Shown here piece by piece: positions 29,027 to 57,596 of a stretch of 64,000 bases of DNA. Origin of the DNA: Candidatus Kapaibacterium sp. GTDB lineage: Bacteria; Bacteroidota; Ignavibacteria; Kapaibacteriales; UBA2268. A program made the position numbers and the translations under genes. Position 1 is the stretch's first letter. Each line of letters begins with the position of its first letter. The notes beneath the pieces were generated by a model. That model saw nothing but the letters and a program-made list of their open reading frames with translations, was not told where the DNA came from and searched no databases. The stretch is taken from contig OY761611.1 of the NCBI GenBank assembly GCA_963664875.1, positions 1,760,958 through 1,824,957 of the forward strand, written 5' to 3'.

Positions 29027-29965
29027 CTAACTGTCCATCTCCTGAACAATAGTAAAGAGACCTTTGTTTCTATATACTTCACAAATCTCTTCAGCGTATT
29101 TTTCGGAAAAATATCTTTCGAGCGAGAAGGCAATGCCTCCGGCAACTTGCTTTTCCTCCGCATCAGGCTTTATTTGACGAATTAGGGCAGTTTGTTCTTC
29201 GTTTTGCGGCACTATCAATACGTGGAAATAGCTTTTTGCATTTTCTCCGCTCAGATAGTGCGAGGCTATAGCATCTAACTCAGAGAAAATAATTTCCTCT
29301 TCTTTGGAGACAAGCTCATCTGCTTTTACTAATGTCTCCAATAAATCAATCAGCTGAGCCAACTGCTCATGTTTAGGTTCAGTAGCGAGGTAGTTCTGCA
29401 TACCACTCCTGAGATTGTTCAATTTATCTGCAAAAGAGAGTGCAGAATTTACTTCTGGCTGCTGCAAATTGAAATCAATATTCCATGCATTGGCAAAATC
29501 ATTTATTAACTTCTCTTCCTTTTTATCCAAATTATTATCTATCCACGCTAACTGATTGAGAATTTCAAGGATTGCTTTGGCTTCGGTTTTACCTGAAAGC
29601 GTATTAAGCAGGTAAGTCGCTTCTTTTCTCTCGAGAGTAATCGCATTTTTTATCAACTGCATGAATCCTAATTTCTTATTGCCCCCAACAAAAAAACCTG
29701 TACTGATCACAAGTAAAATCAATGTTTCGAAGATATAAATGGCATTATCCACTATTGAGGTATATTCTCCGATAATGATATATTTCACAGTCCACACCAC
29801 GAGTATAAAAAGAGACAGAGAAAGCCCCAAAATAGACTGCGACTCTGCTACTTCCCTTTCTGCTTTCCTCTTCCAAATTTTATTTACTTTCAGATACACT
29901 TCTAAAAGGGCAAAACCAAGAGCTACATATATAATCAAATCAAGTATTTTTACGATTAGTTCCAT
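29027..29965 (-). CDS. Membrane-anchored protein with TerB-like (tellurite-resistance TerB-type) repeat motifs
   Basis: Three N-terminal transmembrane helices precede soluble segments LVKADELVSKEEEIIFSELDAIA and LAWIDNNLDKKEEKLINDFA. These resemble the TerB family (KADG...E) pattern. The gene lies 5 nt downstream of the channel gene. Confidence 0.45.
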   Translation of the reverse strand: MELIVKILDLIIYVALGFALLEVYLKVNKIWKRKAEREVAESQSILGLSLSLFILVVWTVKYIIIGEYTSIVDNAIYIFETLILLVISTGFFVGGNKKLGFMQLIKNAITLERKEATYLLNTLSGKTEAKAILEILNQLAWIDNNLDKKEEKLINDFANAWNIDFNLQQPEVNSALSFADKLNNLRSGMQNYLATEPKHEQLAQLIDLLETLVKADELVSKEEEIIFSELDAIASHYLSGENAKSYFHVLIVPQNEEQTALIRQIKPDAEEKQVAGGIAFSLERYFSEKYAEEICEVYRNKGLFTIVQEMDS

Positions 29966-29970
29966 AGTGT

Positions 29971-32169
29971 TTAAACCTGCCCTTTTAGTAAGATAATTTT
30001 ATCACCGGAAAGGAGATTGCCCGATTCAATTTTTTCAATTTTATGTGAGTTATGGTTATACTTTCCAAATACTACTGCTCTTGCATCAAATTGTAATATC
30101 AGGTCTTCCGGTAAATCTTCATATTTGATTGGTGCAATTTCAAAGCTTTTGGTATTGAATATTGCTTCAATTATTTGCTTAGAATCAGGATTGAGAGCAA
30201 ACTGTGCTAAAATAGCATACGTTAGTCGCTGCAGACTTAGATAATTATCCGGCATCAAATCCTCACCGAGTTTAGTATTTACTATTTCAGCAAGAATTTC
30301 TATGTTTAGATTCTGCTTAGTCAAAATGTCTTTAATATAAGTGTAACACAGCACCGCTTCTGTGTCTGCTTTGCTAAAATCAACAAAATCGGAATAATTA
30401 ATTATATATATCCTATCGTATTTCTGCCAATCGAGTAACAAAAGCTGGTCGTAATCATTATGAAGGTAATGCCCAATAGAAATCTTGATATTATTAGTTT
30501 TGTTTGTAATTTCAGGCAACTCAGGCAAAATTTTTGGAGTAATGAGTATTTCAATATTGAAATCTTTACCGTAGCTATCCATTTCATCTATTACACTAAA
30601 CAAGTAATCATTGAAACCAATTATCAAAATATTTTTGATGGCATTATTAGTGTTAAATTCCAATTGAGTTGATTTTGAAGTTTGTCTTTTACTGATTTCC
30701 GAATACTCAAAAGATTCGGAATCATCTGCTATAGCTATCAGTTCATCACTCGTACCAATAACATAATCATGTTCCGGAAGAAACACTATTTCATTGTTAG
30801 TGCGTTTTATACCTATCAACAATGCATCTTTAAAGTTATTGATAAGATTGCCAAATGTTTGCCCTGCAGCTTTATCAATACGTTTGACATATACTTCCCT
30901 TCCTTCAAACGAAAGTAGCTCTTCATAAACTTTAAAAGTAAGAGGTTCGAGGATTGAAAGTGCAATAATTCTGCTGATAATCCCATTGTTATCAACAGGT
31001 AGAAATCTATCATTCAATATATTTTTGCAGAATGGTCTCAGTGCGGGGTTATTTAGAATAAATGAGATATAAGGCATTTTAGCTTTATTTTCAAATATTT
31101 TATGCAAGAGTAAAAGTATCTGAGTTGATTTAGAATTATCTTCATCTTCGGATATGATTATGATAGAATTAGCATATTGCACATTCGCTATTTTCAAATC
31201 ATCTTCTACAGTAGGGCTTCCGGTACGAAACGTAATGCTTAATCTGCTACTGTTTTTGATATTTTGAGAAAAATACGCAGCCATGTCCGCTTTGCTCTTT
31301 TCTGCAAGCACAACAGCAATTATTCTTTTCTTGCCCTCTAAAGACATCAGCAATTCGTTAAAAATTATACTGATGTTGTCAGACCATCCCAAAATCACAA
31401 CATGATCGGTGTCGTAGGTCTGTTTCCTGCCGGAGGCATCTAACTCACGAATATTTTCCAACTCCGAAACTAATACACCTATAAACAAATTGAGTATAAT
31501 CATACTGCCAATAACAATAAAGGAAATGTAAAATATAGATGCAATCAGAGTGTTTCCGTTTTCTATCTGGGTGGCAAGCAAATCCGGCCAACCTTCACCC
31601 GTAATTGTCTGAAACAAAGTAAGCACTGCGGAAGAAAGATCTCCATAATGCTCTGGGTCTGACACTTTGAACATGAAAACACCCATTATTCCATAGACAT
31701 AAAACAAAATAAGAATTATCAGTGCTACATAACTCATGGAAGGAAGACTCTGGAATAAGGTATTAACAAGGCGTTGCAGCGGCTTGACAAAAGAGAAAAA
31801 ACGCAGCACTCTCAGCACTCTGGTCAATCTCACTAATCTGAATACGATTACTGCCTCAACCACGGAAGATGCTTCAAACAACCACGGCAAAATGCTAAGT
31901 GCGACAATGATAAAATCAAACAAATTCCAGGCATCTTTGAAGTAGTCAAAAGGAGTGGGTTTGTTAGCATACATCTTAATAAATACCTCAGCAACAAAGA
32001 TTGAGATAATTATATTATCAACAGTATGCAGAATGTGCGACATTTCCGAGCTCAGACCGGGTATAGTTTCCAGTCCAATCAGACATGCCGAAATAAAAAT
32101 GAGAAGCATTATTGCATTTTCGAACCAGTTATTTTCTTTATTCTTTATTTTTTCAAAAAGTTGGCTCAT
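29971..32169 (-). CDS. Voltage-gated cation channel (6TM; CaV/NaV-like TGEGW selectivity filter) fused to tandem C-terminal RCK/TrkA-N-like domains
   Basis: The S4 helix RLVRLTRVLRVLRFFSF has Arg at every third position. The pore loop reads LTLFQTITGEGWPDLL. Beyond residue ~250 two Rossmann-like segments appear: HVVILGWSDNISIIFNEL and ILIIGFNDYLFSVIDEM. Confidence 0.7.
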   Translation of the reverse strand: MSQLFEKIKNKENNWFENAIMLLIFISACLIGLETIPGLSSEMSHILHTVDNIIISIFVAEVFIKMYANKPTPFDYFKDAWNLFDFIIVALSILPWLFEASSVVEAVIVFRLVRLTRVLRVLRFFSFVKPLQRLVNTLFQSLPSMSYVALIILILFYVYGIMGVFMFKVSDPEHYGDLSSAVLTLFQTITGEGWPDLLATQIENGNTLIASIFYISFIVIGSMIILNLFIGVLVSELENIRELDASGRKQTYDTDHVVILGWSDNISIIFNELLMSLEGKKRIIAVVLAEKSKADMAAYFSQNIKNSSRLSITFRTGSPTVEDDLKIANVQYANSIIIISEDEDNSKSTQILLLLHKIFENKAKMPYISFILNNPALRPFCKNILNDRFLPVDNNGIISRIIALSILEPLTFKVYEELLSFEGREVYVKRIDKAAGQTFGNLINNFKDALLIGIKRTNNEIVFLPEHDYVIGTSDELIAIADDSESFEYSEISKRQTSKSTQLEFNTNNAIKNILIIGFNDYLFSVIDEMDSYGKDFNIEILITPKILPELPEITNKTNNIKISIGHYLHNDYDQLLLLDWQKYDRIYIINYSDFVDFSKADTEAVLCYTYIKDILTKQNLNIEILAEIVNTKLGEDLMPDNYLSLQRLTYAILAQFALNPDSKQIIEAIFNTKSFEIAPIKYEDLPEDLILQFDARAVVFGKYNHNSHKIEKIESGNLLSGDKIILLKGQV

Positions 32170-32463
32170 ATAAAACTCTCTTATAGATTATTCTATCAAT
32201 ATCATCTAAAATAAACGGCTTCATAGGAGGCAAATTAAACAAAAATATAAACATACACCCCATATTCAATTCACAATATATAAAATATCAAATTAAGAAA
32301 GTGATAAGAAAAGACTTAGATTAGATGATTTTGTAAGAACTTGTTATTGTGGAGATTATGTGGGGGGTGTTTCTATCACACTCTTTCTATTTGCGGGCAA
32401 TACAAAAAAAATGTATTTTGAGTAGAATAATTTTAGTTTGTACTATTTTTTCGAATCAGCCAA

Positions 32464-32805
32464 ATGTCAAATTCAATCCGCACAACAGATGATTATACCA
32501 AATTAGGTTTTTGGAAAAAACTTGTCAATTCTGCACAAAAGGGCGGGAAGAAAGTTATAGAAAAGGCTCTTATTCTATACTATACTCTTAATGACAGCGA
32601 TACTCCCAAAAAGTACAAAGCTATTATTTACGGAACTTTGGGCTATTTTATAGCTCCCTTGGACGCTATCCCTGATTTTGCACCTGTGATAGGCTACAGT
32701 GATGATTTATCTGTTATTGTAGCTACTCTGATCGCAGTCTCTTCCTTCGTGAAAGAACAACACAAAGAGCTGGCACGACAAAAAATAGACAAACTTTTTG
32801 GTTAG
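32464..32805 (+). CDS. DUF1232 (YkvA-family) small membrane protein
   Basis: The signature LDAIPDFAPVIGYSDDLSVI is present. Confidence 0.6.
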   Translation: MSNSIRTTDDYTKLGFWKKLVNSAQKGGKKVIEKALILYYTLNDSDTPKKYKAIIYGTLGYFIAPLDAIPDFAPVIGYSDDLSVIVATLIAVSSFVKEQHKELARQKIDKLFG

Positions 32806-32877: not shown

Positions 32878-34575
32878 TTGGATTCTATCATGGAAGGTAT
32901 TAAAGATACTTCAACTATAAGTCTGAGAAAGATATTAGGAAACGGACTTACATATCTTGTTCCGAAATTCCAAAGGGATTATTCTTGGGAAACGGAGCAC
33001 TGGGATGACTTATGGTTAGACATGATAGATTTATATAATGATGTTGAAACAAGCCATTATATGGGATATTTAGTTTTTCAGACATCAGACAATAAACTGC
33101 ACAAAATTATTGATGGACAGCAAAGGCTTACTACAATTTCTTTACTCATAATTTCTATCTTGAAGAGACTCAAAGAACTTGAAGAGACAGGTATTGATGC
33201 TGAGAAGAATAAACTTAGAAGAGAACAACTTCAAAATAGCTATATAGGATTTATCGACCCTGTTACTTTGATTGCTAAGAATAAATTAGAGCTCAATAGA
33301 AACAATGATGATTTTTACAAACATTATATTGTGCCTCTTGCAAATCTCCCTCAAAGAGGCAGAAATGCCTCAGAAAAGTTAATGAAAGCTTGTTTTGAGT
33401 GGTTTTATAAAAAAACAACTTCTCTATATAAAACCGGAGAAGAGCTAACAAGGTTTATTGAAAAAATAGTAGATAAACTTTTCTTTACGGTTATCACTGT
33501 AGGCGATGAACTAAATGCTTATAAAGTATTTGAGACATTGAATGCGAGAGGAGTTAAACTATCTACGGCTGATTTATTAAAAAACTACCTTTTTTCAATT
33601 GTTGACTCGAATGAGAAAGAAACTAGGAAAGAAGAATTTGAGCTTTTAGAGTACTTATGGAGTGAATTACTCAGGAAGCTCGGTTCTGAGAAATTGCCTG
33701 AGTACATACGATATTACTGGAACAGCAAAAATAAAACTGTAAGAAAAAATGATTTATTCAAGACATTAAAATCTAACATAAAAGATAAAGCAAACGTTTT
33801 TGCATTGTTGAGAGATTTAGTTGAGAAAGCTGATATTTTTGTTGCGATTTTAAGTCCTGAAGATGAGTATTGGAATAACCATACTTTAGAACTTCGCAAT
33901 AGCTTACGAGAATTGAAAATCTTTGGTGCAAAACAACAAATCTCTTTACTTATTTCAGGCAAAAGTAATTTGACTGACCCAAAATTTACTGAGTTAGTTA
34001 AATACTGCTCGATAGTGTATATGAGATATAATATTATTGGTGGACTTAATCCAAATGAGCAAGAAGGAATTTTCAACAAGTTAGCTTTGGATATTCAAAA
34101 CAATAAAGATTATAACAAATCTGATTTTTTGGAAATATACCCATCTGATGAAGAATTTGAAGTAGCCTTCTCAAATAAAGAATTTACAAATACCTCAAGA
34201 AACAACAAAGTTACAAAATACATCTTAACAAAAATAGAGAACTATATCTCACAGGCAGATTTTGATTTTCAGAGCGATAGAAATACGATTGAACATATTT
34301 TACCTGAAAATCCGGATGATACATGGGATATCGAAGATGATGTGCGAAATAGATGCAGATATAGACTTGGCAATCTAACATTGTTAGAAAAAAACAAAAA
34401 TTCGCATCTTAAGAACAAATCTTATGATCAGAAAAGAATTGTTTTTCAGAATTCCAAATTTGCTATAACTAAGGATATTGCGGCAGATTATTCTCATTGG
34501 GGTGAAGAAGAAATATCAAGACGTCAGAATATTCTGGCAAAAAAAGCTAAGACTATTTGGAGAATAAGTTTTTAG
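32878..34575 (+). CDS. DUF262-DUF1524 fusion protein (GmrSD-family putative type IV restriction endonuclease)
   Basis: The N-terminal DUF262 has the DGQQR motif (IIDGQQRLTTISLLI). The C-terminal DUF1524 has a His-Me-finger-like segment TIEHILPENP...LGNLTLLEKNKNSHLKNKSY. Confidence 0.7.
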   Translation: MDSIMEGIKDTSTISLRKILGNGLTYLVPKFQRDYSWETEHWDDLWLDMIDLYNDVETSHYMGYLVFQTSDNKLHKIIDGQQRLTTISLLIISILKRLKELEETGIDAEKNKLRREQLQNSYIGFIDPVTLIAKNKLELNRNNDDFYKHYIVPLANLPQRGRNASEKLMKACFEWFYKKTTSLYKTGEELTRFIEKIVDKLFFTVITVGDELNAYKVFETLNARGVKLSTADLLKNYLFSIVDSNEKETRKEEFELLEYLWSELLRKLGSEKLPEYIRYYWNSKNKTVRKNDLFKTLKSNIKDKANVFALLRDLVEKADIFVAILSPEDEYWNNHTLELRNSLRELKIFGAKQQISLLISGKSNLTDPKFTELVKYCSIVYMRYNIIGGLNPNEQEGIFNKLALDIQNNKDYNKSDFLEIYPSDEEFEVAFSNKEFTNTSRNNKVTKYILTKIENYISQADFDFQSDRNTIEHILPENPDDTWDIEDDVRNRCRYRLGNLTLLEKNKNSHLKNKSYDQKRIVFQNSKFAITKDIAADYSHWGEEEISRRQNILAKKAKTIWRISF

Positions 34576-34655: not shown

Positions 34656-36686
34656 ATGGGTGATTTTAAATTACAGTCTAAATATAAGCCGTCTGGTGAC
34701 CAGCCTACTGCTATCAAGGAGCTGACAGAAGCTGTCGAAAGAGGTGACAAACATCAGGTTTTGCTTGGTGTTACCGGGTCGGGTAAAACTTTTACCATAT
34801 CTAATTTGATAAAAAATGTGCAGCGTCCCACTCTTGTCATTTCTCCTAATAAAACTCTTGCAGCTCAGCTTTTTGGCGAATTGAAGGCTTTTTTCCCTGA
34901 AAACTCAGTAGAATATTTCATTTCCTACTATGATTACTACCAGCCGGAAGCATATATAGTTACTTCCGATACTTATATTGAAAAAGACTTTTCTATAAAC
35001 GACGAAATCGACCGTTTGCGTCTTCGTGCTACTTCTGCTTTGGTTGAGGATAGGCGTGATGTGATAGTTGTAGCTTCTGTTAGTTCAATCTATTCCATAG
35101 GTAGAAAGCAGGACTTTGTGGATAGCCTTTATCATGTTTATGTCGGCAAAAAAGTTGATAGACAAGCGATTTTATATAAACTGACTGACTTATATTATAC
35201 AAGAAATGATTTCGAATTTCAGCGCGGTACTTTCCGTGTCCGCGGCGATGTTATAGATATTATCCCTGCGTATGAAAACCAGCTTGGTATTCGCATAGAG
35301 CTTTTCGGAGATGAGATAGACAAAGTTTCTTATATAGATGCTCTGACAGGAAAGGTCGTTCAGAACCTGCAGGGTACAAAAATATTCCCGGCTAAGCTTT
35401 TTGTAACAGGTGACACTCAACTAAAAACTGCAATGCAGAAAATAAGAGATGAGCTATATGACAGATTAAAAGAATTGCGTAGTCAGGATAAGTTAGTAGA
35501 AGCACAACGCCTCGAGCAGCGTACTCTTTTTGATTTGGAGATGATGAAGGAAGTAGGTTATTGCTCTGGTATTGAGAATTATTCAATGCACATTTCAGGC
35601 AGAGACTTTGGCGAGAGACCTCACTGTCTTTTCGATTTCTTCCCGGATGACTATTTGCTTGTAATTGACGAAAGTCACGTTACTTTGCCTCAGCTAAGAG
35701 CGATGTATAATGGCGACCGCAAGCGAAAAACTAATCTTGTGGAACATGGTTTCCGCCTTCCTTCAGCAATTGAAAATAGGCCAATGAAGTTTGAAGAGTT
35801 TGAGGCTATGGTGAATCAGGCTGTGTATGTAAGTGCGACACCAGGGCCTTATGAATTAGAAAAAGCAGAGGGTGTAGTGGTCGAGCAGGTTATCCGCCCA
35901 ACCGGATTATTAGATCCTGAGATTGATGTTAGACCAATATCTAATCAAATAGACAATCTTCTTTTCGAAATTCGCAAAAGGCAGGAAAAAGGCGAAAGAG
36001 TACTCGTTACTACTCTAACCAAGCGTATGGCGGAAGACTTGACTGATTACCTAAGTAATTTAGATGTAAAAGTAGCTTATATCCACTCAGATATAGACAC
36101 TCTTGCACGAGTAGAAATCATACGTGATTTGCGTCTGGGCGAGTTTGAAGTATTAGTTGGTGTAAACCTGCTTCGCGAGGGCTTAGACTTACCTGAAGTA
36201 TCGCTTGTTGCTGTACTCGATGCTGATAAAGAAGGCTTCCTTCGCTCCGAAACATCTTTGCTTCAGATTGCCGGAAGAACTGCACGTAATGCTGAGGGGC
36301 GCGTAATTTTATATGCTGATAGGATTACAAGATCTATGCAGGCTTTGATTGACGAAACAAACCGTCGCCGTAAACTGCAAACCGAATACAACGAAAAGCA
36401 TGGCATAAATCCTGTTACAGTATTCAAATCCCTGGAAGAAATTCTAAGCTCTACTTCTATAGCTGATGTAAGAAAAGACAGCAATAAGAGAGATTTAGCT
36501 TACGGAGTCCACAAAAATAAAGAGATAAAAGTAGCTGACCCACTTGCTGAATATATGAGTAAAGAACAGCGAAAAGAGCTAATTGAACAAATGTTTGTCG
36601 AAATGAAAAAAGCCGCCAAAGATTTGGACTTCGAACGTGCTGCAGAGTTGAGAGATGAGATACAAAGACAGCAGGAAATGGTGTAG
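34656..36686 (+). CDS. uvrB: Excinuclease ABC subunit B
   Basis: The N-terminus reads [42 protein letters not shown], with the Walker A and helicase motifs. The C-terminal UvrB/UvrC-interaction segment ends [14 protein letters not shown]. Confidence 0.95.
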
Positions 36687-36857: not shown

Positions 36858-39800
36858 TTATTTGAATGCTTTTTCTAAAAGTCCATCGCCTTTTAGACTT
36901 AATCTTTCGAAGTAATCAGGTACGTCTTTGCCCGTTAGTTTATCTACGTACATTTTTGCAAGGTACTGACCAAGCATAAAACCTTGACCACGAAGACCGG
37001 TAAATAAACCTAATTCAGGATCTATGTACATTCTTGGTTCCACGTAGTAGCCTGCCCAGATCGCCTGGAAACCAACGCTTGATAGCTCAGGTAGCCAATC
37101 CACAAAGACTTCTGAGACTATTCTGAGGAAGTCTTCAGAGTTGATTTTTAAGTTGGCTTTTGCTTCCTGAGGGTCAACTGCAGGTGATGCACAACCTATA
37201 ATCTGTCCTGTTTCTGCTAATTGCTGACCGTAAACTGCCACAAAACCTTTGTAGTTTCTGCGGTCAATAAGCATAGGAAGCGGAATACCATCTTTACCCA
37301 TCATAGGCAAACGACGAGTAATAAATGCCTGATGTTTCACAGGGTACAAGCCTGTTTCCAGACCAACCATTTTAGTAAATTCTTCTGCCTCAGGGCCAAG
37401 TGCATTTATAAAGACTTCAGTTTCATATTCTACATATTCTTTATCGTGATTATGTACCAAAACGTGGTATTTGCCATCTTCTTTTGTTACCTGAATTAGT
37501 TTACAGTCCTCCTGAACCGTACCACCATTTTTGATACCGATTTGTCTGATCAGGTCAACTACTTTGCCCGGAGTAGCCTGCCAGCAGTCTTTAGTAATAA
37601 GGGCCGCCTGATAAGTAGAAAGATTTTGGTTAAATCTTGGAGATATTTCTTTAGCAAAGTCTTTAGGTTCTACCATGTATGCATTTGACCATTGTTTAGA
37701 AGCTTCAAGAGCCTGATAAACATTGTCGTCATGAGCAAATGTTACATAATCGATAGGTCTGTAGTCGATATTTGCTATTTTATCCAATTCTTTGAAAATA
37801 GCAAGGTTATTTATTGCTATGTCTGAGATTTCAGGCAATGAAAACGCAGGGCGACCACCGGCAATATTTCTCCATGAAGAGCCTCTGCCGTAGTTTACCA
37901 AAGTTGGTTCCATGCCTGCTTCTGCCAGATAGCGGAATAAAGCAGAGCCACCGATACCGCCGCCCGCAACAAGTGATTTGACTTTGATTTTTCTGATATT
38001 TTTAGTTGCTACCGGAATTACTTTATGCACAGAACCGTTCGGGTAAAGCTCGCCCATATTTACCTGATTTGACATCGGCCCGCGTGGGGTCGCTTCACCT
38101 ACAATAGTTATGCCGCTGCCTGCAAGCGTCTGTTTCAAACGTTTGATACATCTTTTACCGCGACATGCACCCATACCCAAACGTGTAGTGTGTTTGATTT
38201 CGTCAATTGAGATGAATTTTCTGTCTCCGATAACATCCATGATTGTATCAAGCGTAACATCATCGCAGTGGCAGATGTATTTTTTTGATTCGATATTTTC
38301 TTCATTATCCACAAACTCGACAGGTTCGGGGTAGTTTTCTCTAAGGATAAAACCGCGAGCTTTTACAATTTCTCTACCTTCTAAAGTAGTAGATTTCACT
38401 CTTGCTATATGAGTTTTATTTCCTTTTTTGAATATTTTTTCGATGATTCCTTCGCCAAGTTTTTTGCCATGATTATCAACAAGAAATACTTCTTTATTAG
38501 TTTCAATATCAAATTCGATAGGAAGGAATAACCAGCCTTTTTTGATATTATAACCAAATATGGCTAAGCCCGGGCACTGATAAACGCACTCCATACAGCC
38601 GATACATCTGTCATAATCAATAACAGGTACAGTAGATGAAGAGTTTTTGCTGATAGCACCATGAGGACAAGAGAAAGCACAAGGATTACAAGCAAAACCG
38701 TACAAACAGTCAGCTATAACAAAAGGTTTTTCTAACCTATCTTCATTAGGCATAACAGCTTCTGCGATTATTTTGTGAGGGTGCTGCTGAGAGTCAATAT
38801 ACTCTTTAGAGATTTTTAGATAGTCGTCGTAGTTATAACGCATACCCAAATCTTCCAAAATCTCAAACGCTACCTGCTTGCCCCGAAGTACAGCACTTGT
38901 ACCTTCGCCGATTCTAACGGCATCACCTATGCCATGGCAATCGCGTTTAAATATTTCTTTGCCTTTGATAAGCAAAGCATCATCTGGCACAAGACCTGTA
39001 CAGATATTTATCGCATCGATACCTTTGATAATTTTTTCAGTACCCGGAACAGGTTTGAAGTTTTTGGCTTCAGCAACCACTGCGCCGATGATACCGTCTT
39101 TATTTTCATTTGGAATCGCTTTAACTAAGATATGAGAAAGCATAACAGGAATGCCAAGTCTTCTTACTCTGTTTGCCTGAACAGGGAAACCACCTTCATG
39201 AGGTTGTGCTTCGATAATAGCTTTTACGTTAGCACCACCCTGCATAAGCTGGTAAGAAGTCAAGTAACCGATATTACCTGCACCAACTGTCAAAATGTTT
39301 TTACCAAGAAGAGTAAGCTCGTCATTCATCATTTTCTGAACAACTGCAGCAGTATAAACTCCCGGTAAATCATCATTTTCAAAAGAAGGCATAAACGGTA
39401 CTGCACCTGTAGCAATGACAAGCACATCTGCTTCTACATAGTAGATTTCATCTGTTTTGATATTTTTAACAGCTAAACGTTTGCCGTCTAAAATGTCCCA
39501 AACAGTTGAGTTCAGGAAGATATTTTCATGGCTGGCGCCGGCTAAAGTAGCAGAAATATCAAAACCACGCATACCGCCAAATTTCTTCTCTTTTTCGAAG
39601 AAGAAGAACTGGTGTGTTTGCATATTAAACTGACCGCCAACTTTATCATTATTATCGATAACAATATTATCTACGCCAAAGTTATTTAACTCTTCGCGTG
39701 CTGCCAAGCCTGCTGGGCCGGCACCGATGATAGCGACAGTAGTTTTATAAATTTTTACTTCATGATTATTTTTATAGTCCGAAACGCTCGGAGTATAATC

Positions 39801-40085
39801 TTTAGGAATCTCTTCAACATTACTAATGTTATCAACTTTAGTAATGCAGATACGTTTGATTTGACCATCTACAAGCATTTCGCAGGCGCCACATTTTCCG
39901 ATGCCGCATTCCAAGCTGCGTTTACGGTTGTCTAAGCTGTGGCTGTGAACGGGATACCCCGCTTGATGCAGTGCCGCAGCTATTGTTTTGCCTTTTTGTC
40001 CTTTTACTTTGTTTCCCATATAAGTAAAAGTAACTTCAGATGATTCCTGTATCTCTAATATTGGGTGTGATGTGATTTGATACAT
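36858..40085 (-). CDS. Multidomain fused flavo-iron-sulfur oxidoreductase: 2Fe-2S ferredoxin-like, FAD/NAD(P) pyridine-nucleotide-disulfide-oxidoreductase-like, 4Fe-4S dicluster, BFD-like [2Fe-2S] and DAO-type FAD oxidase domains (HcnABC / proline-dehydrogenase-complex / opine-oxidase-like)
   Basis: An N-terminal CGIGKCGACEM (Fer2-like) is followed by VAIIGAGPAGLAAREEL and LTVGAGNIGYLTSYQLMQGGANV. Two 4Fe-4S motifs, CNPCAFSCPHG and CIGCMECVYQCPGLAI, come next. The BFD-like segment is CHCDDVTLDTIMDVIG...GMGACRGKRC. The C-terminal DAO-like motif is VAGGGIGGSALFRYLAEAG. Confidence 0.7.
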   Translation of the reverse strand: MYQITSHPILEIQESSEVTFTYMGNKVKGQKGKTIAAALHQAGYPVHSHSLDNRKRSLECGIGKCGACEMLVDGQIKRICITKVDNISNVEEIPKDYTPSVSDYKNNHEVKIYKTTVAIIGAGPAGLAAREELNNFGVDNIVIDNNDKVGGQFNMQTHQFFFFEKEKKFGGMRGFDISATLAGASHENIFLNSTVWDILDGKRLAVKNIKTDEIYYVEADVLVIATGAVPFMPSFENDDLPGVYTAAVVQKMMNDELTLLGKNILTVGAGNIGYLTSYQLMQGGANVKAIIEAQPHEGGFPVQANRVRRLGIPVMLSHILVKAIPNENKDGIIGAVVAEAKNFKPVPGTEKIIKGIDAINICTGLVPDDALLIKGKEIFKRDCHGIGDAVRIGEGTSAVLRGKQVAFEILEDLGMRYNYDDYLKISKEYIDSQQHPHKIIAEAVMPNEDRLEKPFVIADCLYGFACNPCAFSCPHGAISKNSSSTVPVIDYDRCIGCMECVYQCPGLAIFGYNIKKGWLFLPIEFDIETNKEVFLVDNHGKKLGEGIIEKIFKKGNKTHIARVKSTTLEGREIVKARGFILRENYPEPVEFVDNEENIESKKYICHCDDVTLDTIMDVIGDRKFISIDEIKHTTRLGMGACRGKRCIKRLKQTLAGSGITIVGEATPRGPMSNQVNMGELYPNGSVHKVIPVATKNIRKIKVKSLVAGGGIGGSALFRYLAEAGMEPTLVNYGRGSSWRNIAGGRPAFSLPEISDIAINNLAIFKELDKIANIDYRPIDYVTFAHDDNVYQALEASKQWSNAYMVEPKDFAKEISPRFNQNLSTYQAALITKDCWQATPGKVVDLIRQIGIKNGGTVQEDCKLIQVTKEDGKYHVLVHNHDKEYVEYETEVFINALGPEAEEFTKMVGLETGLYPVKHQAFITRRLPMMGKDGIPLPMLIDRRNYKGFVAVYGQQLAETGQIIGCASPAVDPQEAKANLKINSEDFLRIVSEVFVDWLPELSSVGFQAIWAGYYVEPRMYIDPELGLFTGLRGQGFMLGQYLAKMYVDKLTGKDVPDYFERLSLKGDGLLEKAFK

Positions 40086-51815: not shown

Positions 51816-52181
51816 CTAAGTTTCTTTGTTTCGAGACATATTCCCAAAAAACGCTAAAAAAGTTCCATATGATTGAACAATCATGCTTGGTGACATCAGT
51901 ATTTGGATAATATCGAAATCATTTGCACTATTTAGAAAAAAAAGATACAAAGAAATAAGAAGCAATATTTCCGATGCATACCTCATCATAATATATACTT
52001 TTTTTTCTTTAAAATTGAAAAACAATCTGTTAATTAAGACAATATTGCTAAACAATAATATTAAATGTGCTTCTGAGTTTGCATACTTATCAAAAATAAA
52101 TATACTATACAGTAAGAACAACTCTATACTTGCTAAAACAATGAAACCGGTCACCAATAGTGCAGTATTTCTTTTTTTCAT
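51816..52181 (-). CDS. Hypothetical small membrane protein (121 aa)
   Basis: About three hydrophobic helices are predicted. A minus-strand terminator follows about 55 nt downstream. The region is AT-rich, so confidence is low. Confidence 0.3.
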   Translation of the reverse strand: MKKRNTALLVTGFIVLASIELFLLYSIFIFDKYANSEAHLILLFSNIVLINRLFFNFKEKKVYIMMRYASEILLLISLYLFFLNSANDFDIIQILMSPSMIVQSYGTFLAFFGNMSRNKET

Positions 52182-52247
52182 AATATTCTACTTCTTTTTA
52201 ATCACCGAAAAAACGAGCAAAACTGTTATATATTAAGGTAGCCGTGT

Positions 52248-52484
52248 TCATTGCTTCCTTCTTTTTAGCAGTGCATCTTTGCTATATTTTACTCCATAGA
52301 TGATGACATGCGGAAGAATAGCTATATTAATCATAAAAAAGTAAACATGCAGCAAATCTAACTCTATCAAAACTAAGACCGCTATAAATATCAGCACTTC
52401 TATATATAGATATATCGGTTTCATGTCATACCTGCGATTATAAATTACAATTCGCAAAATACACAATATTATATTCATTTTCAT
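52248..52484 (-). CDS. Hypothetical small membrane protein (78 aa)
   Basis: About two hydrophobic helices are predicted. It has the same orientation as its neighbours. Confidence 0.25.
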   Translation of the reverse strand: MKMNIILCILRIVIYNRRYDMKPIYLYIEVLIFIAVLVLIELDLLHVYFFMINIAILPHVIIYGVKYSKDALLKRRKQ

Positions 52485-52778
52485 ATAGAATACAGCATAG
52501 AGTGTAAGTTTTATGCTCTATTAGCTACTATTTACCTATACTACCTGCTAAAAGCTACCTGAGAAGCCTGACCGTCTAAGTGCTGGATGCCAAGGCTGTT
52601 AAATCTAAAGTTTTGCCTTTTAAGGAGTATTTGGAGTTAAATGTTTTTATTATTTATGACTATGCTGATAGTTTGTTTCAATTATAGTAATCAAAGGGCT
52701 CTGTTTATCATTGTCGAAGAACATGATATTACATAATCAGAAAAAGTTCTACAAATACAGTTCAGAATCAATAGACTA

Positions 52779-52967
52779 TCAAACAAAAAGCCAAAACAAA
52801 ACAACTACTAATGCCACATAGCAACTGAAAAAAATATACTTTTTATTTCTGTTGCCAAAGAATATATTCGATACTTTGGCATATAAAACAGGATTGTTCT
52901 TTTCTGTTTTATGTTTCAGAATAAAAATCGAAAATAATATTCCAAAATACAATAAAAACAATACCAT
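52779..52967 (-). CDS. Hypothetical small membrane protein (62 aa)
   Basis: It consists of two hydrophobic segments. It has the same orientation as, and lies downstream of, the paralogous lipoprotein genes. Confidence 0.2.
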   Translation of the reverse strand: MVLFLLYFGILFSIFILKHKTEKNNPVLYAKVSNIFFGNRNKKYIFFSCYVALVVVLFWLFV

Positions 52968-53040
52968 AGGATTTACCCTAAAATTATTTTTTGAATTCTA
53001 TGTAGGTTTAGGTCGAAAACCTAAACCTACGTATGTTTGA

Positions 53041-53940
53041 TTAATCCCACCAACCGAAAAGATATTTACCTGCTGCGGCAACTCCACAAACAACTGCATT
53101 GGTCACCACTACAGCAGAACTACCAGAGGCAGCTGCAGCACCTGGCAAAGCTCCGATTCCTCCTGTACAAACACCACCTGCAATTGCTCCAGCAGCATCA
53201 GCTAATACAGTTCCAACTGCACAAGCAGCAACAGCAGCTTCTGTTTTTCCAATCTTTTTAGAAACTACATTTTGTTCTTTTGCTCCTAACAACTTGCTTA
53301 CGTTAAATTCATAAGAATGTTTCACGATAGCAATAGTTTTAAGAGCCATAGTTTCTTCTTCATCCCATGTCTCTTGTAAAATCTTACTTTCTACTGCTTG
53401 AATTCGATTAGCAATACTTGCCAAAGTAAACATCTCCTCTCCTTCAATAATATTTCGTAATTCATCAAAAATGTAAACTACCATATTAGCATCTTTCTCA
53501 GAAGTACAGCCATATATGGTCTCTCTTAATGAGGATGTCAGAAAATAGCCTGTGTTTAGTTCGTTTACTGCTGTTTTAAATCCGTTAGATATTAGGAAAT
53601 CATCCACTTCTTGTTCAGATACGTTTAGGGACTGATTATTAAGAGCTCCAGTGATAATAGTCAACACTTTGCTATTAAAGTTGTCATCTTCATAGTTAGA
53701 AGTACTAGTAAACTCACCTGATTGGTAGTAAGGCAATAATTGCTGAAAAACTTCTTCCATAGCTTTATTATGTATTTCGCCTAAGTAATCATAGGGATTT
53801 ACTAACTGTACTTGGACACTATTTGTTATAGTATTGTTTGACATTGCAGGAACAACAGATTCATTGTCTTCTGTACAACTCATCAAACCAAAGATTGAAA
53901 GCGATAATGCCATTAAGGCAAGGATAATTTTTGTTTTCAT
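53041..53940 (-). CDS. Secreted lipoprotein with a C-terminal Gly/Ala-rich glycine-zipper tail (bacteriocin/microcin-like)
   Basis: The N-terminus MKTKIILALMALSLSIFGLMSC has a lipobox. The C-terminus is AVAACAVGTVLADAAGAIAGGVCTGGIGALPGAAAASGSSAVVVTNAVVCGVAAAGKYLFGWWD. Confidence 0.6.
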   Translation of the reverse strand: MKTKIILALMALSLSIFGLMSCTEDNESVVPAMSNNTITNSVQVQLVNPYDYLGEIHNKAMEEVFQQLLPYYQSGEFTSTSNYEDDNFNSKVLTIITGALNNQSLNVSEQEVDDFLISNGFKTAVNELNTGYFLTSSLRETIYGCTSEKDANMVVYIFDELRNIIEGEEMFTLASIANRIQAVESKILQETWDEEETMALKTIAIVKHSYEFNVSKLLGAKEQNVVSKKIGKTEAAVAACAVGTVLADAAGAIAGGVCTGGIGALPGAAAASGSSAVVVTNAVVCGVAAAGKYLFGWWD

Positions 53941-53975
53941 TTTGATATCTGTAATTAGTTTTTACATTAAGTAAT

Positions 53976-54102
53976 TGAATTACTATTGCTTTTAAGCGAA
54001 AAAGCAATAATTTACAGTGCATGATTTCGTGTAAGTCAAACATTTCGAAATCACGTGCGTTTTGTAGCCGATTACTCCCCAGTATCGGCTCTTTTTTTGC
54101 CG
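53976..54102 (+). repeat. Conserved upstream element, copy 1: three hairpins, the last being an intrinsic terminator on the plus strand
   Basis: Copy 1 is nearly identical to 55217-55344. The first hairpin is TATTGCTTTT...AAAAGCAATA. The second is TGATTTCG...CGAAATCA and contains the palindrome ATTTCGAAAT. The third is AGCCGATTACT-CCCC-AGTATCGGCT followed by T7. Confidence 0.7.
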
Positions 54103-54314
54103 TTTGTGTAATTTAGTTATAGTTTTTAGAACACTTTACTCCTGTTTCTTATTGAATATGATATTCCTATTTCGTAAAACTGATTTTTGAAGTTAAATGT
54201 TCCAAAATAGAACAACCATTTTGCAAAGAAAATTATTACAAGTATACTTTATAATACAAAATTAGCGAGTTAACTTTTATGTATTCATCCTATTACATAT
54301 TAGTATGCTATATT

Positions 54315-55181
54315 TTATTTTCCCCAGTTGCCTAAGTCAACTTCTCCCAACCAAACCTCAGCTATATCAGGCTCGAGTTTAACAAGCCCCATTTTAATTA
54401 ACACTTCAAGCCATGAACCAGGTAAAACAACTACACCTTTCAAGCTAATAAAACCATCAGGCATAAACTTGATATTCCCATTGCCAAACCAGAACAAACT
54501 CCCCAAAAACATTTGCATAGTCGGCTTAGTAAAGATTGGCAATTCACCTTCATAGTCCGGTTTACAGCCGGTTTGGACAAACCAAACATCTTTATCTTCA
54601 TCTATAAGATTATTCCAATATACTGCATTAGCAAGACTTAGTTCACAAGCATTAAGTAAGATACTTTTTTTCGAGGACAACAATCCAAAATCACTATTAA
54701 TTGCTTTTTTTATTTCAGTGATTTTAGAATCCATCTCAGCTATATCATTAACATTTGCAATTATATCTGCGATTTGTCTGATATAATTTTTCACTAAATC
54801 AGAAATATTCGCATTATTATAATAATCCTGTAATGAGATCGATTGTATCATTGTGTAATTTTCTACAATCCAATCGTTGAATTCTGTCGGAATTGAATTC
54901 ATATCTGAAGCTACAAATATGTTGCTCTTGTACATATTGCTAAAGCTCTGATAATCACATAATCCAATGAATTGATCTTTTAAACTAAAAAAATTATGCC
55001 AAGTTTGATTAAGCTGGTAAGAAACCTCAGTATTCAATATGCTAAGTTTTGACACATTTGAACTGCTAAATTCGCTTGAATTATCTGATGGCATTGTGTT
55101 AGAAGCTTGTTCCGTACAACTCATAAGACCAAAGATAGAAATCGATAATGCCATAATAGCAAGAATAATTTTTGTTTTCAT
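54315..55181 (-). CDS. Secreted lipoprotein paralog
   Basis: The N-terminus MKTKIILAIMALSISIFGLMSC matches the 53041..53940 gene at 19 of the first 22 residues. The rest of the protein has diverged. Confidence 0.6.
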   Translation of the reverse strand: MKTKIILAIMALSISIFGLMSCTEQASNTMPSDNSSEFSSSNVSKLSILNTEVSYQLNQTWHNFFSLKDQFIGLCDYQSFSNMYKSNIFVASDMNSIPTEFNDWIVENYTMIQSISLQDYYNNANISDLVKNYIRQIADIIANVNDIAEMDSKITEIKKAINSDFGLLSSKKSILLNACELSLANAVYWNNLIDEDKDVWFVQTGCKPDYEGELPIFTKPTMQMFLGSLFWFGNGNIKFMPDGFISLKGVVVLPGSWLEVLIKMGLVKLEPDIAEVWLGEVDLGNWGK

Positions 55182-55216
55182 ATTTTTAACTGTAATATGA
55201 TTCTACATTATTTTAT

Positions 55217-55344
55217 TGAATTCCTATTGCTTCTTTTCAAAAAAAGCAATATATTACAGTGCATGATTTCGTGTAAGTCAAACATTTCGAAATCACGTGC
55301 GTTTTGTAGCCGATTACTCCCCAGTATCGGCTCTTTTTTTGCCG
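55217..55344 (+). repeat. Conserved upstream element, copy 2
   Basis: Copy 2 is about 95% identical to 53976-54102 over roughly 125 bp. It includes the same hairpin and T-run terminator. Confidence 0.7.
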
Positions 55345-55455
55345 AAATTATTTTTTACTTTTTGTCAAGAAATATATCACCTATAAATCAATGAATAAAC
55401 TATTTTCGTCTGTTATTATAGTCAAATATCAACAGCACTAATTTAGCAATTTCTC

Positions 55456-55495
55456 AAAAAAAAAAAAAACGAAAATGCTATGTTTCTTTAGCATT
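55456..55495 (-). terminator. Rho-independent terminator (minus strand) about 200 bp beyond the esterase terminator
   Basis: The plus strand carries an A14 run followed by AATGCTA...TAGCATT. On the minus strand this is a hairpin followed by T14. Confidence 0.5.
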
Positions 55496-55671
55496 CATAA
55501 TTCAAACTATCCTTGATAACATGGGCTATGCAATGACTTATATTCTAACATAATGATTTAACACTATTTACCGCTGAATTTCTGTCGTTATATAGTATTA
55601 TTTTTACAATAAGAACTATTATGAATGAGTATTTTAATACACCTATAATTTATTCATTATTTTATTCATTT

Positions 55672-55710
55672 TTACAAAAAAAGAGCATAAGACCTGCATC
55701 CTATGCTCTT
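55672..55710 (-). terminator. Rho-independent terminator after the esterase gene (minus strand)
   Basis: The stem AGAGCATA...TATGCTCT is preceded on the plus strand by A-rich sequence, which gives a T-run on the minus strand. Confidence 0.7.
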
Positions 55711-55733
55711 TGATATGAATATCTGTATAGCAA

Positions 55734-57596
55734 CTATTGCACTATTACTTTTACATTTTTTCCGTTGAGGATTAAATTGTAAACTCCGGCGGAAAGTGCT
55801 CTTAAATCAAGCTGTTTCCCGTCCGCTTTTACTGCAGAAGTAACATCATTACCTAAAATATCAACTACTTTATATGTACTTGGTAGCTCAGTATTGATTG
55901 TAATAAAGTCAGCTGTAGGATTAGGGAATACTGAGATTTCTTCTTCGTTTGTTTCTTCTACTGAAACATTAGGATCTAAGATAATATTATCTATAAGAGT
56001 CATACCGCCCATTGCTCCATAAACTGAGAATTTGAATTGAGCGTGTTCGGACATATATTTAGAATCAAGATCAATTCTTTCAGTTCTCCAGTTTTCCTCT
56101 GCCGGTTTTACATTGTAGATATAAGTCTGTTCAAATATATCTTTGAATGGCTCATCATAAGTCGCAAGCTCTTCTCTTGTTTTTCTGTATATCTCTTCGA
56201 AAGTTTTACCACCGTCTATTGAGATTTCTACTACAAGAGTATCAGAGTAAATATATTCTGTTCCCTGAATATTATAATGGAAGTAGTTATAAGCAACATC
56301 AAAAGATAAATATGGAGCCATACCATCAATATTAAAGAATGGAGAAATCAGCTCATCTTTGAAGCCTTCGTAGTTAAATACCATAAGTGTAGGATTGCTG
56401 TAAAATGCCATAGCATAGTTGTCTCCATCTTGGTAAGGTTGCCAAGTTTCTAGTTGAGGGGATTCTTCTAAAAACCAATCATTTTCTAATTCGTTACCCG
56501 GAGCAGGATTGAATACATAAGGCAATTTATGAGGTTCCTCTGTGTAATAAATTGTATGTACAGTTTCTTCCTCTTCTTCTTTTGCTACGCCATTTACTTC
56601 CAGTACTTTGAAAGAAATATCATTTAGTCCCGGCTCTAAAGCACCTGCTTCCACTTCGAGCGATTCAAAAACGTACTGTTCAGCTTCGCCTTCCCAAGTA
56701 TATTCGTATGAATTAGTACCATTAGAAACTTCAAATTTGCAAGAAGTGATAGAGTTGTCTCCGGCACCTCTAAATCTGATATTAAACTTAGGTGTTTCTT
56801 CCAAAGTGTTGTTCGGTGAATCTATATCCATGATTTCTACTATGTCGTTGCCCATATTGTCCCCGTTAAAAGCAACCTGTGCAACCGGGAACGCATGATA
56901 AACAATAGAGTGTCCCATATCAGGAATCACAAAGTGACGCATAATTGCATTGTATTTTTCTAAACTGTCAACTACCATCTGAATTGGTTCTAAATAAAAA
57001 ATATCATCAGCACCATTTGTAATAATCATAGGAACCTTTCTTGCATTTTCATAACGAATGCGTTCGAAAATGCCTAAATCAGCATATAAATTCATTGCAT
57101 CTTTCGGCCCTTGCACTGCAGGAGTATTTAGTATTAGAGTATGAAATTTTTCCGGGTACTGCAAACCATAGCACATAGCCGAGCGCGCACCAAGAGAAAA
57201 GCCTTCAAGAAATATTCTGTCTTCAGCTACATTGTAGTTTGCTTTAACATAGTCGATACACTTGTCAACTATAGTAATGTCTTCACGAGGCTCGTAGAAG
57301 TCTCTGTTTTGGTCATCGCCACCATCAGGAATAACATAAATATAGTTATTATACATTGGGTCTAATTCCGCAACAGATTTAGCAAAAGCTGCCATATTCG
57401 CAGAGTTGTCACCCAAACCATGTAGCATAATCATTACATCATAAGCTTTTGTACCATCGTAATCCAAAGGTACATAAAGCGAAACAGGTCTGTCTTCATC
57501 CAAATGAGGAAGTGTGATATTAATTAAGCCGGTTTCCTGCGAAAAAGCAGTGCCAAAGCAAATAAATAAAGCGAGTAGAGTAGATAAGTATTTCAA
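55734..57596 (-). CDS. T9SS-secreted alpha/beta-hydrolase (esterase/lipase or depolymerase-like) with a C-terminal sorting domain
   Basis: An HGLGDNS oxyanion-hole-like segment is present. The nucleophile elbow is GFSLGA (GxSxG). The C-terminus ...GVYNLILNGKNVKVIVQ is a T9SS C-terminal domain. The start codon is TTG, with a GGGAGA SD. Confidence 0.75.
   Translation of the reverse strand: MKYLSTLLALFICFGTAFSQETGLINITLPHLDEDRPVSLYVPLDYDGTKAYDVMIMLHGLGDNSANMAAFAKSVAELDPMYNNYIYVIPDGGDDQNRDFYEPREDITIVDKCIDYVKANYNVAEDRIFLEGFSLGARSAMCYGLQYPEKFHTLILNTPAVQGPKDAMNLYADLGIFERIRYENARKVPMIITNGADDIFYLEPIQMVVDSLEKYNAIMRHFVIPDMGHSIVYHAFPVAQVAFNGDNMGNDIVEIMDIDSPNNTLEETPKFNIRFRGAGDNSITSCKFEVSNGTNSYEYTWEGEAEQYVFESLEVEAGALEPGLNDISFKVLEVNGVAKEEEEETVHTIYYTEEPHKLPYVFNPAPGNELENDWFLEESPQLETWQPYQDGDNYAMAFYSNPTLMVFNYEGFKDELISPFFNIDGMAPYLSFDVAYNYFHYNIQGTEYIYSDTLVVEISIDGGKTFEEIYRKTREELATYDEPFKDIFEQTYIYNVKPAEENWRTERIDLDSKYMSEHAQFKFSVYGAMGGMTLIDNIILDPNVSVEETNEEEISVFPNPTADFITINTELPSTYKVVDILGNDVTSAVKADGKQLDLRALSAGVYNLILNGKNVKVIVQ

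Follow-up and report, generated by a model that had tools for sequence, protein, structure and literature searches.

We analysed a 64,000-nucleotide stretch of DNA from Candidatus Kapaibacterium sp. (contig OY761611.1, positions 1,760,958 to 1,824,957 of the forward strand; hereafter the window), in which two adjacent genes on the minus strand encode a putative voltage-gated cation channel and a smaller membrane protein. The channel gene (29971..32169) specifies a protein of 732 amino acids that joins a six-transmembrane (6TM) voltage-sensor and pore module to a tandem-RCK gating ring, as judged from Pfam matches and from full-length homologs at 27-42% identity. Directly downstream lies the gene for a three-part protein of 312 amino acids (29027..29965), hereafter referred to as the partner. 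A 5-nt spacer, acact (29966..29970, minus strand), separates the TAA stop codon of the channel gene from the ATG of the partner gene, and no terminator-like site was detected at 29966-29970. The initial annotation of this DNA had placed both open reading frames at exactly these coordinates, 5 nt apart, and had described the union of a Na+/Ca2+-type voltage-gated pore with RCK domains as uncommon. Indeed, the fusion of a voltage-gated pore to a ring of the CASTOR type is rare, and it is conserved in a small bacterial family.

Pfam assigned the membrane part of the channel to Ion_trans (residues 14-242, E 3.1e-50) and PKD_channel, not to Ion_trans_2, and the cytosolic part to Slo-like_RCK (residues 255-348, E 1.1e-7) and Castor_Poll_mid (PF06241; residues 397-491, E 9.1e-17). 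The domain matches of both the channel and the partner are far beyond chance; NCBIfam held no model for the channel protein. A word-indexed search followed by clustering at 90% identity yielded 19 full-length proteins of the same architecture, at the identity to the channel mentioned above, and all conservation counts for the family refer to these 19 members. The channel model that we built on them with AF2 (AlphaFold2) reached a mean predicted local distance difference test (pLDDT) score of 79.5 and showed six membrane helices plus pore helices (P-helices), a long S6 (residues 207-246) and then two beta-alpha-beta Rossmann-type domains. The model was confident in both RCK domains (residues ~255-498 and ~509-732), and the linker between them (residues 499-508) was disordered or of low confidence.

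The voltage-sensor domain (VSD; S1-S4, residues 14-127; 31789..32130, minus strand), with helices as delimited in the AF2 model, had been credited with a canonical S4 of five charges. This was borne out, since S4 (residues 104-127) carries an arginine at every third position, namely R111, R114, R117, R120 and R123. R117 was found in 19/19 members, R114 and R120 were arginine in 18 of the 19, and position 123 was arginine in 18 and lysine in one. The charge-transfer centre consists of F58 and E61 in S2 together with D85 in S3, all three of which are invariant (19/19). In one homolog, P0003 (L094:5001-7235), the five S4 positions read D, S, R, I and R, which leaves two arginines, but a TGEGWPE filter and the ring have been retained; P0003 may be a voltage-insensitive variant.

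The pore module (residues 129-246; 31432..31785, minus strand) comprises a helical S4-S5 linker, S5, the P-helices, the filter and an S6 with the invariant N227. Its selectivity filter, TGEGWPD (T190-G-E192-G193-W194-P-D196; 31582..31602, minus strand), was assigned by sequence motif and family conservation and forms the end of the pore sequence FQTITGEGWPD (residues 186-196). Within the family W194 was invariant, position 192 was always E or D, and G193 was present in 16 of the 19 members; family-wide conservation extended to the filter Trp, the acidic filter position 3 and the S6 Asn. Filters of the core clade read T-G-E-[G/A]-W-P-[D/E] with a variant T-A-E-G-W-A-E, and two other groups carried [S/T/A]-F-E-G-W-S-x and T-F-D-D-W-S-[E/Q]. 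Channel residues 12-250 aligned with CaV/NaV repeats and with BacNaV structures. The best single-domain matches in the PDB were BacNaVs, with 153.7 bits for 4bgn and ~126-132 bits for NaChBac and NavMs; individual CaV3 repeats scored ~65 bits, and the high totals of CaV/NaV chains are sums over four repeats. A TxExW filter of non-K+ type had been proposed for this pore, and the K+ signature T[VI]G[YF]G was absent from the entire 732-residue protein. Alignment did not place the pore in a K+ or cyclic nucleotide-gated (CNG) channel family; the BacNaV matches and the TLEDWTD or TLEGWxD filters of the nearest unfused relatives (see below) pointed to the Na+/Ca2+ channel side.

Conceivably, the protein could still belong with voltage-gated K+ channels that carry an RCK ring, such as Kch and BK. 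Kch and Slo channels classically combine 6TM with RCK, whole Slo1 chains were returned by the fold search, and the homolog P0018 had been named 'voltage-gated potassium channel Kch' by the Joint Genome Institute (JGI). This K+ channel reading is contradicted by the absence of a GYG motif: neither TVGYG nor GYG occurs anywhere in the protein, and the P-loop aligns with the filters of CaV, NaV and BacNaV channels. In addition, Pfam placed the membrane part in Ion_trans and PKD_channel instead of Ion_trans_2, and the match of the ring to CASTOR is better by ~95 orders of magnitude than its matches to MthK and BK. We consider a K+ channel at this locus extremely improbable.

To place the membrane module, we compared it with unfused channels, taken as the 80 loci that were listed from a scan of species-representative genomes with the family alignment (patterns of the transmembrane (TM) region). 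Among the matches listed there were only ordinary 6TM channels of 249-336 amino acids, 33-43% identical to residues 1-250 of the channel, and neither fused channels nor the window genome. The filters of these unfused relatives, among the matches listed, read TLEDWTD at 44 loci and TLEGWxD/E at ~20 loci. TLEDWTD and TLEGWxD are the filter types of NavPp and CavMr, respectively, which define the 'ancestor-like BacNaV' group (AnclNav) of Shimomura et al. (PMC7041947). From the membrane modules of the 19 RCK-fused and the 80 unfused channels we calculated a neighbour-joining tree without support values. One bipartition separated the two sets, and the 14 core members of the fused set were monophyletic. 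A single fusion event would fit this tree, bearing in mind that its branches carry no support values. The unfused protein P0218 (299 amino acids, filter TGEDWPD), which is 45% identical to the membrane part of the channel and ends in a short helical tail, was the closest 'pre-fusion' form seen.

The filter itself invites a prediction of ion selectivity. CavMr carries the filter TLEGWVD, in which the Gly at position 4 is a key determinant of Ca2+ selectivity; the substitutions G4D and G4S lower the Ca2+ selectivity of CavMr, and D4G makes NavPp Ca2+-selective (PMC7041947). CavMr and domains I and III of CaV channels alike combine G4 with a position 7 that is polar or acidic, and canonical BacNaVs lack this combination (PMC7041947). 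A survey of one-domain channels related Gly at the position directly after the acidic ring (high-field-strength site plus one, HFS+1) to Ca2+ selectivity, and Ser or Ala to Na+ permeability (PMC10120453). Because TGEGWPD has E3, G4 and D7, the pore is predicted to be Ca2+-selective or at least highly Ca2+-permeable. The CaV/NaV-like character originally ascribed to the filter could thereby be narrowed, as it is closest to that of CavMr, a native prokaryotic CaV.

The cytosolic part of the channel is made up of two RCK domains. RCK1 (residues 255-498; 30676..31407, minus strand) has a Rossmann N-lobe that starts from HVVILGW and a C-terminal subdomain matching Castor_Poll_mid. RCK2 (residues 509-732; 29974..30645, minus strand) begins with KNILIIGFN, contains the invariant residues G518 and N520, and was recognised by AF2, profile and Foldseek alike. 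Foldseek superimposed the C-terminal ~480 amino acids on the LjCASTOR and MtDMI1 rings (6o7a, 6o6j, 6o7c and 7vm8) with E ~1e-30, target TM-scores of 0.80-0.82 and ~510 aligned columns at 20-22% identity; the next-best matches were whole Slo1 and Slo2.2 chains. Likewise, a family profile of the C-terminal region matched CASTOR (6o6j) in the PDB with E 7e-103 across all 516 profile positions, reaching the second half of the CASTOR ring (RCK2), and DMI1 with E 5e-97, whereas the RCK domains of MthK and BK were matched at only ~1e-8. The loop after the first strand of the ring (beta1) reads ILGWSD, as in CASTOR. The initial annotation had called two RCK/TrkA-N segments here. The tandem RCK part of this call was substantiated over the whole ring, and the TrkA-N part had to be dropped: a TrkA_N/NAD-binding RCK scored 14.9 bits against a cut-off of 23.8, and there is no GxGxxG motif. 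The C-terminal ring is thus of the CASTOR/POLLUX/DMI1 type and not of the TrkA-N/NAD type.

We mapped the ion sites described for CASTOR (PMC6697748) onto the 19 family members. All 11 of the 11 anchor residues named in that study agreed with the reconstructed CASTOR chain, and the register of the site mapping is therefore sound. E493, the only side-chain ligand of Ca(II) in CASTOR, corresponds to E425 (codon 30895..30897, minus strand), which is invariant (19/19) and lies within the conserved loop E-L-L-S-F-x-G-x-E. The same loop also makes the neighbouring Na+/K+ site of CASTOR cluster II, which shares E493 and modulates open probability (PMC6697748). At Ca(III), D553 is kept as D483. Retention of the E425 loop, taken together with the loss of the Ca(I)/Mg site described below, suggests the cluster-II cleft of RCK1 as the probable site of action of a cation from the cytosol, which would most plausibly be Ca2+.

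Comparison with characterised systems showed partial likeness to several of them. With CavMr and NavPp (PMC7041947), the channel shares a single 6TM subunit, an S4 with arginine at every third residue and a T-x-E-x-W-x-D filter. TGEGWPD and the CavMr filter TLEGWVD have T1, E3, G4, W5 and D7 in common, and the difference lies in positions 2 and 6, which are G and P here as opposed to L and V/T in CavMr and NavPp. BacNaVs measure ~250-340 amino acids and end in a short neck and a coiled-coil; in contrast, S6 of the 732-residue channel leads into the ~480-residue tandem RCK, and the fused channels occupy a branch of their own next to BacNaV-type unfused channels in the neighbour-joining tree. 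The channel is a derived relative of the BacNaV/AnclNav group and not a typical member of it. With LjCASTOR, POLLUX and MtDMI1, channels of the plant nuclear envelope (Kim et al. 2019, PMC6697748), it shares full-length homology of both RCK domains and their peripheral subdomains, including the glutamate of the Ca(II) site and the loop around it. CASTOR has been reported as a Ca2+-activated Ca2+ channel and provides a precedent for a non-K+ pore beneath an RCK ring. However, CASTOR-type channels are without a charged-S4 S1-S4 sensor or a T-x-E-x-W filter (the source consulted states only that there is no TVGYG), their pore being built from the last two TM helices, and neither the ligands of Ca(I)/Mg nor the latch of His and Arg residues known from CASTOR is conserved here. 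Bacterial CASTOR-like proteins (P0029-P0074) are likewise without Ion_trans, whereas the channel has a full Ion_trans VSD and a CaV/NaV-type pore.

BK (Slo1) and Slo2 resemble the channel in their design logic, by which a voltage sensor and a cytosolic ring of eight RCK domains act together on the gate of a tetrameric pore, and MthK and E. coli Kch resemble it in combining a pore with an RCK ring. All of these are K+ channels with TVGYG filters, however, and the channel has no such filter. In Slo channels the S4-S5 linker is short, and there is no domain swapping. The channel model, by comparison, contains a long helical S4-S5 linker (residues 127-143), which suggests a domain-swapped assembly of the NaV/CaV type above the ring. 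The channel would work as a hybrid of a BacNaV/CavMr-type pore, a CASTOR-type ring and the dual-gating logic of BK. We have not filed it in any one of these families because it departs from each in one defining feature, namely the BacNaV tail, the CASTOR membrane part or the K+ filter.

On this basis, we propose that the gene encodes a homotetrameric, AnclNav-derived channel in which the BacNaV coiled-coil has been replaced by a CASTOR ring and in which a Ca2+-type pore is tuned by voltage and Ca2+. We hold this proposal to be reasonably probable. In such a channel, the membrane part would descend from the 'ancestor-like BacNaV' lineage to which CavMr and NavPp belong, and a tandem RCK of the CASTOR/POLLUX/DMI1 type would have taken the place of the usual C-terminal coiled-coil of BacNaVs. 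With four subunits, the ring under the pore would number eight RCK domains, an arrangement known from CASTOR and BK. S4 would move on depolarisation and open the S6 gate, and the four E192 residues, each followed by G193, would together confer Ca2+ selectivity on the pore, or at least permeability to Ca2+. The retained Ca(II)-type site around E425 would bind a cation from the cytosol, in all likelihood Ca2+, whereby the ring would change its conformation and bias the gate, so that the entering ion would feed back, positively or negatively, on its own entry. The partner may share a cation-handling context with the channel in this lineage. A wider proposal, in which the family provides self-regulating Ca2+ entry in bacteria (regenerative or self-limiting) through dual gating of a CaV-type pore as in BK, joins with the partner in a Ca2+ signalling or handling module in some lineages and marks a prokaryotic pool from which the plant ring and the CaV pore were drawn, is speculative, and we regard it as unlikely in this complete form.

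Several observations weigh against the proposed Ca2+ channel. CavMr has L and V at filter positions 2 and 6, where the channel has G and P, and filter swaps in NavPp show that selectivity depends on context (PMC7041947). In the ring, D442 and D444 of the CASTOR Ca(I)/Mg site correspond to N374 and A376, by which this site is lost; the H463/R589/R590 latch of CASTOR is absent; and D554 of Ca(III) is replaced by S484. As a consequence of these changes, the ring may respond unlike that of CASTOR, or to another ligand. At 6 of the 10 channel loci no partner stood beside the channel, and no channel was present within 5 kb in 82/82 partner loci found from the partner side (80 metagenomic loci plus L090 and L091). 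Furthermore, clustering at 90% identity left the channel as a singleton, although at this threshold at least five related genomes fall into the UvrB cluster. The distribution of the channel is therefore patchy, and the gene is dispensable in, or absent from, those relatives. Finally, ion selectivity, voltage dependence and the ring ligand are matters that we infer from sequence for all members of the family.

The same architecture could also serve other ions. The pore would then be Na+-selective or non-selective, as in NavPp, and possibly blocked by Ca2+, and the ring would sense Na+/K+, Mg2+ or another ligand, resulting in voltage- and ligand-gated Na+ entry. In agreement with this alternative, most of the nearest unfused relatives listed carry the NavPp-type filter TLEDWTD, and NavPp is Na+-selective despite three acidic residues in its filter, which was also the channel in which the context dependence of filter swaps was seen (PMC7041947). 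Some family members have the filter TGEAWPD, and an Ala at position 4 would imply Na+ permeability by the HFS+1 rule (PMC10120453). On the side of the ring, the Ca(I) ligands are lost, and the Na+/K+ site of CASTOR cluster II that shares E493 modulates open probability (PMC6697748). Nonetheless, the filter of the window channel unites G4 with D7, the combination of CavMr and of CaV domains I and III. Exchanges at position 4 shifted selectivity in the corresponding direction, with D4G making NavPp Ca2+-selective and G4D and G4S reducing the Ca2+ selectivity of CavMr (PMC7041947), and all one-domain channels with Gly at HFS+1 were Ca2+-selective in the survey (PMC10120453). We therefore regard a Na+-selective or non-selective pore as somewhat unlikely, and retain a Ca2+-type pore as the preferred reading.

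The rarity of the fusion was evident from a HMMER search of 1.84 billion (1.84e9) representatives of 50%-identity clusters, in which ~12 of the best 150 matches listed were single-stretch full-length proteins; the remainder of the best 150 were four-repeat eukaryotic channels. This upheld the earlier view that the fusion is uncommon. According to their source labels, the family members derive from metagenome-assembled genomes (MAGs) of Leptospiraceae, Spirochaetota or Bacteroidota, and their source names are 'ion transporter', 'hypothetical' or 'Kch' only. A full-text literature search, the coverage of which was incomplete, found no published description of this architecture, and an earlier mention elsewhere is possible. 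We conclude that this is a new domain architecture built from known modules, the sequences of which are already in domain databases under generic names. In a Leptospiraceae MAG, a Cation_efflux gene of the cation diffusion facilitator (CDF) type follows the channel homolog P0002 after 39 nt (L093:7334-8224), and in a Spirochaetota MAG a cheR-cheW-MCP-cheA chemotaxis cluster lies in divergent orientation to the homolog P0009 (L005:1-4828).

The singleton status of the channel also raises the question of whether it is a decaying or non-functional fusion, that is, the recently acquired gene of an island without a physiological role. The genome has close relatives, yet no other sequence clustered with the channel at 90% identity, the channel gene adjoins a GmrSD-type gene in a stretch of slightly low GC content, and P0003 shows that S4 can degenerate within the family. 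Yet the reading frame runs without interruption over 732 codons, and its product can be aligned with the homologs over the entire length. The S4 arginines, the charge-transfer centre, the filter, the S6 Asn and the ring Glu have all been kept, a 99%-identical fragment of the channel was present in another assembly from another sample, and AF2 was confident in both RCK domains. We consider decay very improbable. The identical channel sequence was found on a 3.8-Mb contig and on a 1.03-Mb contig.

The protein encoded downstream had been described as a 3-TM protein with TerB-like motifs. In our model of the partner (pLDDT 83), three TM helices were followed by a helical region (residues 101-242) and a small alpha/beta domain. 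More specifically, residues 1-95 (29681..29965, minus strand) form a 3-TM bundle like that of SemiSWEET/PQ-loop proteins, residues 101-242 (29240..29665, minus strand) a TerB-like helical domain, and residues 245-311 (29033..29233, minus strand) a small beta-alpha-beta-beta-alpha-beta domain that is ferredoxin/PII-like. TerB (PF05099) scored 22.6 bits on the window partner, under its cut-off of 24.4, and was matched in 24 of 27 members of the partner family with a best E of 2.6e-11. The partner thus tests as TerB-like, by profile or fold, and as a triple-helix bundle of three TM helices, and the description stands. The likeness to SemiSWEET is a resemblance of the modelled fold only. The PQ-loop/MtN3_slv models of Pfam had no match at E <= 0.1 in the window partner or at E <= 0.01 in the 27 members, and inspection of the alignment revealed no Pro-Gln hinge in the segment at the end of TM1 of the window partner; an invariant motif of the partner family, YLxxNK[IL]WKR, is located at the end of TM1. 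The family comprises 64 clusters and 229 confirmed metagenome hits. To our knowledge, a fusion of a triple-helix bundle with TerB and a ferredoxin-like domain has not been described. A literature search returned no description of a triple-helix bundle/TerB fusion, the match obtained being concerned with silicon uptake in coccolithophores.

A partner homolog was located directly downstream of the channel in four of the ten channel loci, namely the window (L001), L002, L092 and L095, and the channels in the paired loci are 38-42% identical to the window channel. L002 and L095 share flanking genes, and L092 was grouped with them by sequence similarity only; if these three represent one lineage, the pairing amounts to about two independent observations. 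The 5-nt gap indicates that channel and partner probably form an operon in this genome and are co-transcribed; the pairing itself is lineage-restricted. Going one step further, the two proteins could constitute an obligate two-component module in which the partner acts as an auxiliary subunit or Ca2+ sensor. The genes are 5 nt apart on the same strand, their order is the same in all four loci even though the channels have diverged to the identities just given, and the rarity of the partner family makes chance adjacency unlikely. TerB domains were reportedly predicted to be metal binders by Anantharaman, Iyer and Aravind in 2012. On the other hand, the separate occurrence of channel and partner at most loci, as given above, speaks against obligate pairing, as does the small number of independent observations, with three of the four paired loci looking like one lineage. 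The closest homolog of the partner (71% identical; L090) stands without a channel in a closely related genome, the UvrB of which is 94% identical to that of the window. When the neighbours of the 82 partner loci were clustered, the only recurrent gene was an FKBP-type gene located downstream in 12 of the 82, and nothing was related to channels. Since the partner occurs without the channel in 82/82 loci found from the partner side, it is neither an obligate nor a general channel subunit, and we consider an obligate module unlikely.

Previous work on RCK rings has dealt with K+ pores (MthK, BK, Kch and Trk/Ktr) and with the sensor-less CASTOR and DMI1, and work on voltage-gated Na+ and Ca2+ pores with channels that carry coiled-coil, EF-hand or IQ tails; the combination found here is new. 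If the preferred reading of a voltage- and Ca2+-tuned channel is true, a single protein could respond to voltage and also detect an ion inside the cell. Being compact, symmetric and probably expressible, the channel would lend itself as a model for the coupling of a ring to a NaV/CaV-type, probably domain-swapped gate. As a second candidate for a native prokaryotic CaV, it would widen the evidence for voltage-regulated Ca2+ signalling in bacteria, and it would offer a prokaryotic reference point for tracing where the plant symbiosis channels came from, as well as a possible scaffold for engineered channels gated by voltage plus ligand. The automatic names 'ion transporter' and 'Kch' hide a distinct family.

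Upstream of the channel gene, an intergenic region of 294 nt (32170..32463, minus strand for the channel) is common to the channel and a divergent DUF1232 gene and is the presumed promoter region. Scans for sigma-70-type promoters are uninformative for Bacteroidota. The sequence TAttTTTG at 32239..32246 (minus strand), ~70 nt 5' of the channel ATG, resembles a Bacteroidota-type -7 box, the consensus of which we take to be TAnnTTTG. A riboswitch or another structured leader upstream of the channel was ruled out, as no Rfam family matched the 294-nt leader and its folding was no better than that of shuffled sequences (z = -0.49); the single Rfam match obtained, to a long non-coding RNA (lncRNA), was at chance level and inside a coding region.

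Beyond the leader, the DUF1232 gene (32464..32805, plus strand) and a GmrSD-type gene (32878..34575, plus strand; PADLOC HEC-06/Orf5, type IV restriction-like) lie between the channel gene and uvrB (34656..36686), which is two genes away from the channel. The UvrB encoded there is 78% identical to its counterpart in a Candidatus Kapaibacterium sp., 74-75% identical to those in Kapabacteria and 73% identical to that in Ignavibacteriae. GC content is slightly low (0.32-0.35) around the GmrSD and DUF1232 genes, which hints at a variable region. The GmrSD neighbour and the TerB domain had suggested an anti-phage defence module; this was rejected, since PADLOC matched the GmrSD gene alone (as HEC-06/Orf5) and had no match for the channel, the partner, the DUF1232 protein or a 361-residue neighbour. 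The distant family member P0015, from a Bacteroidota MAG (JBBFLU010000013.1; L006:1909-9551), is situated between a uvrA-like gene and uvrB. That P0015 and the window channel are both found near uvrB could be a coincidence or old synteny.

No paralogs of the channel or the partner and no tRNA genes were found anywhere in the window. Beyond uvrB, at 36858..40085 (minus strand), lies a gene for a multi-domain oxidoreductase of 1075 amino acids with Fer2_4, Pyr_redox_2, 4Fe-4S, Fer2_BFD and DAO domains, which resembles a fusion of subunits as in sarcosine or opine oxidases. The lowest GC content of the window, 0.28-0.32 compared with ~0.37 overall, was recorded at 52001..56000 and 58001..60000, where the GC skew is strongly negative.

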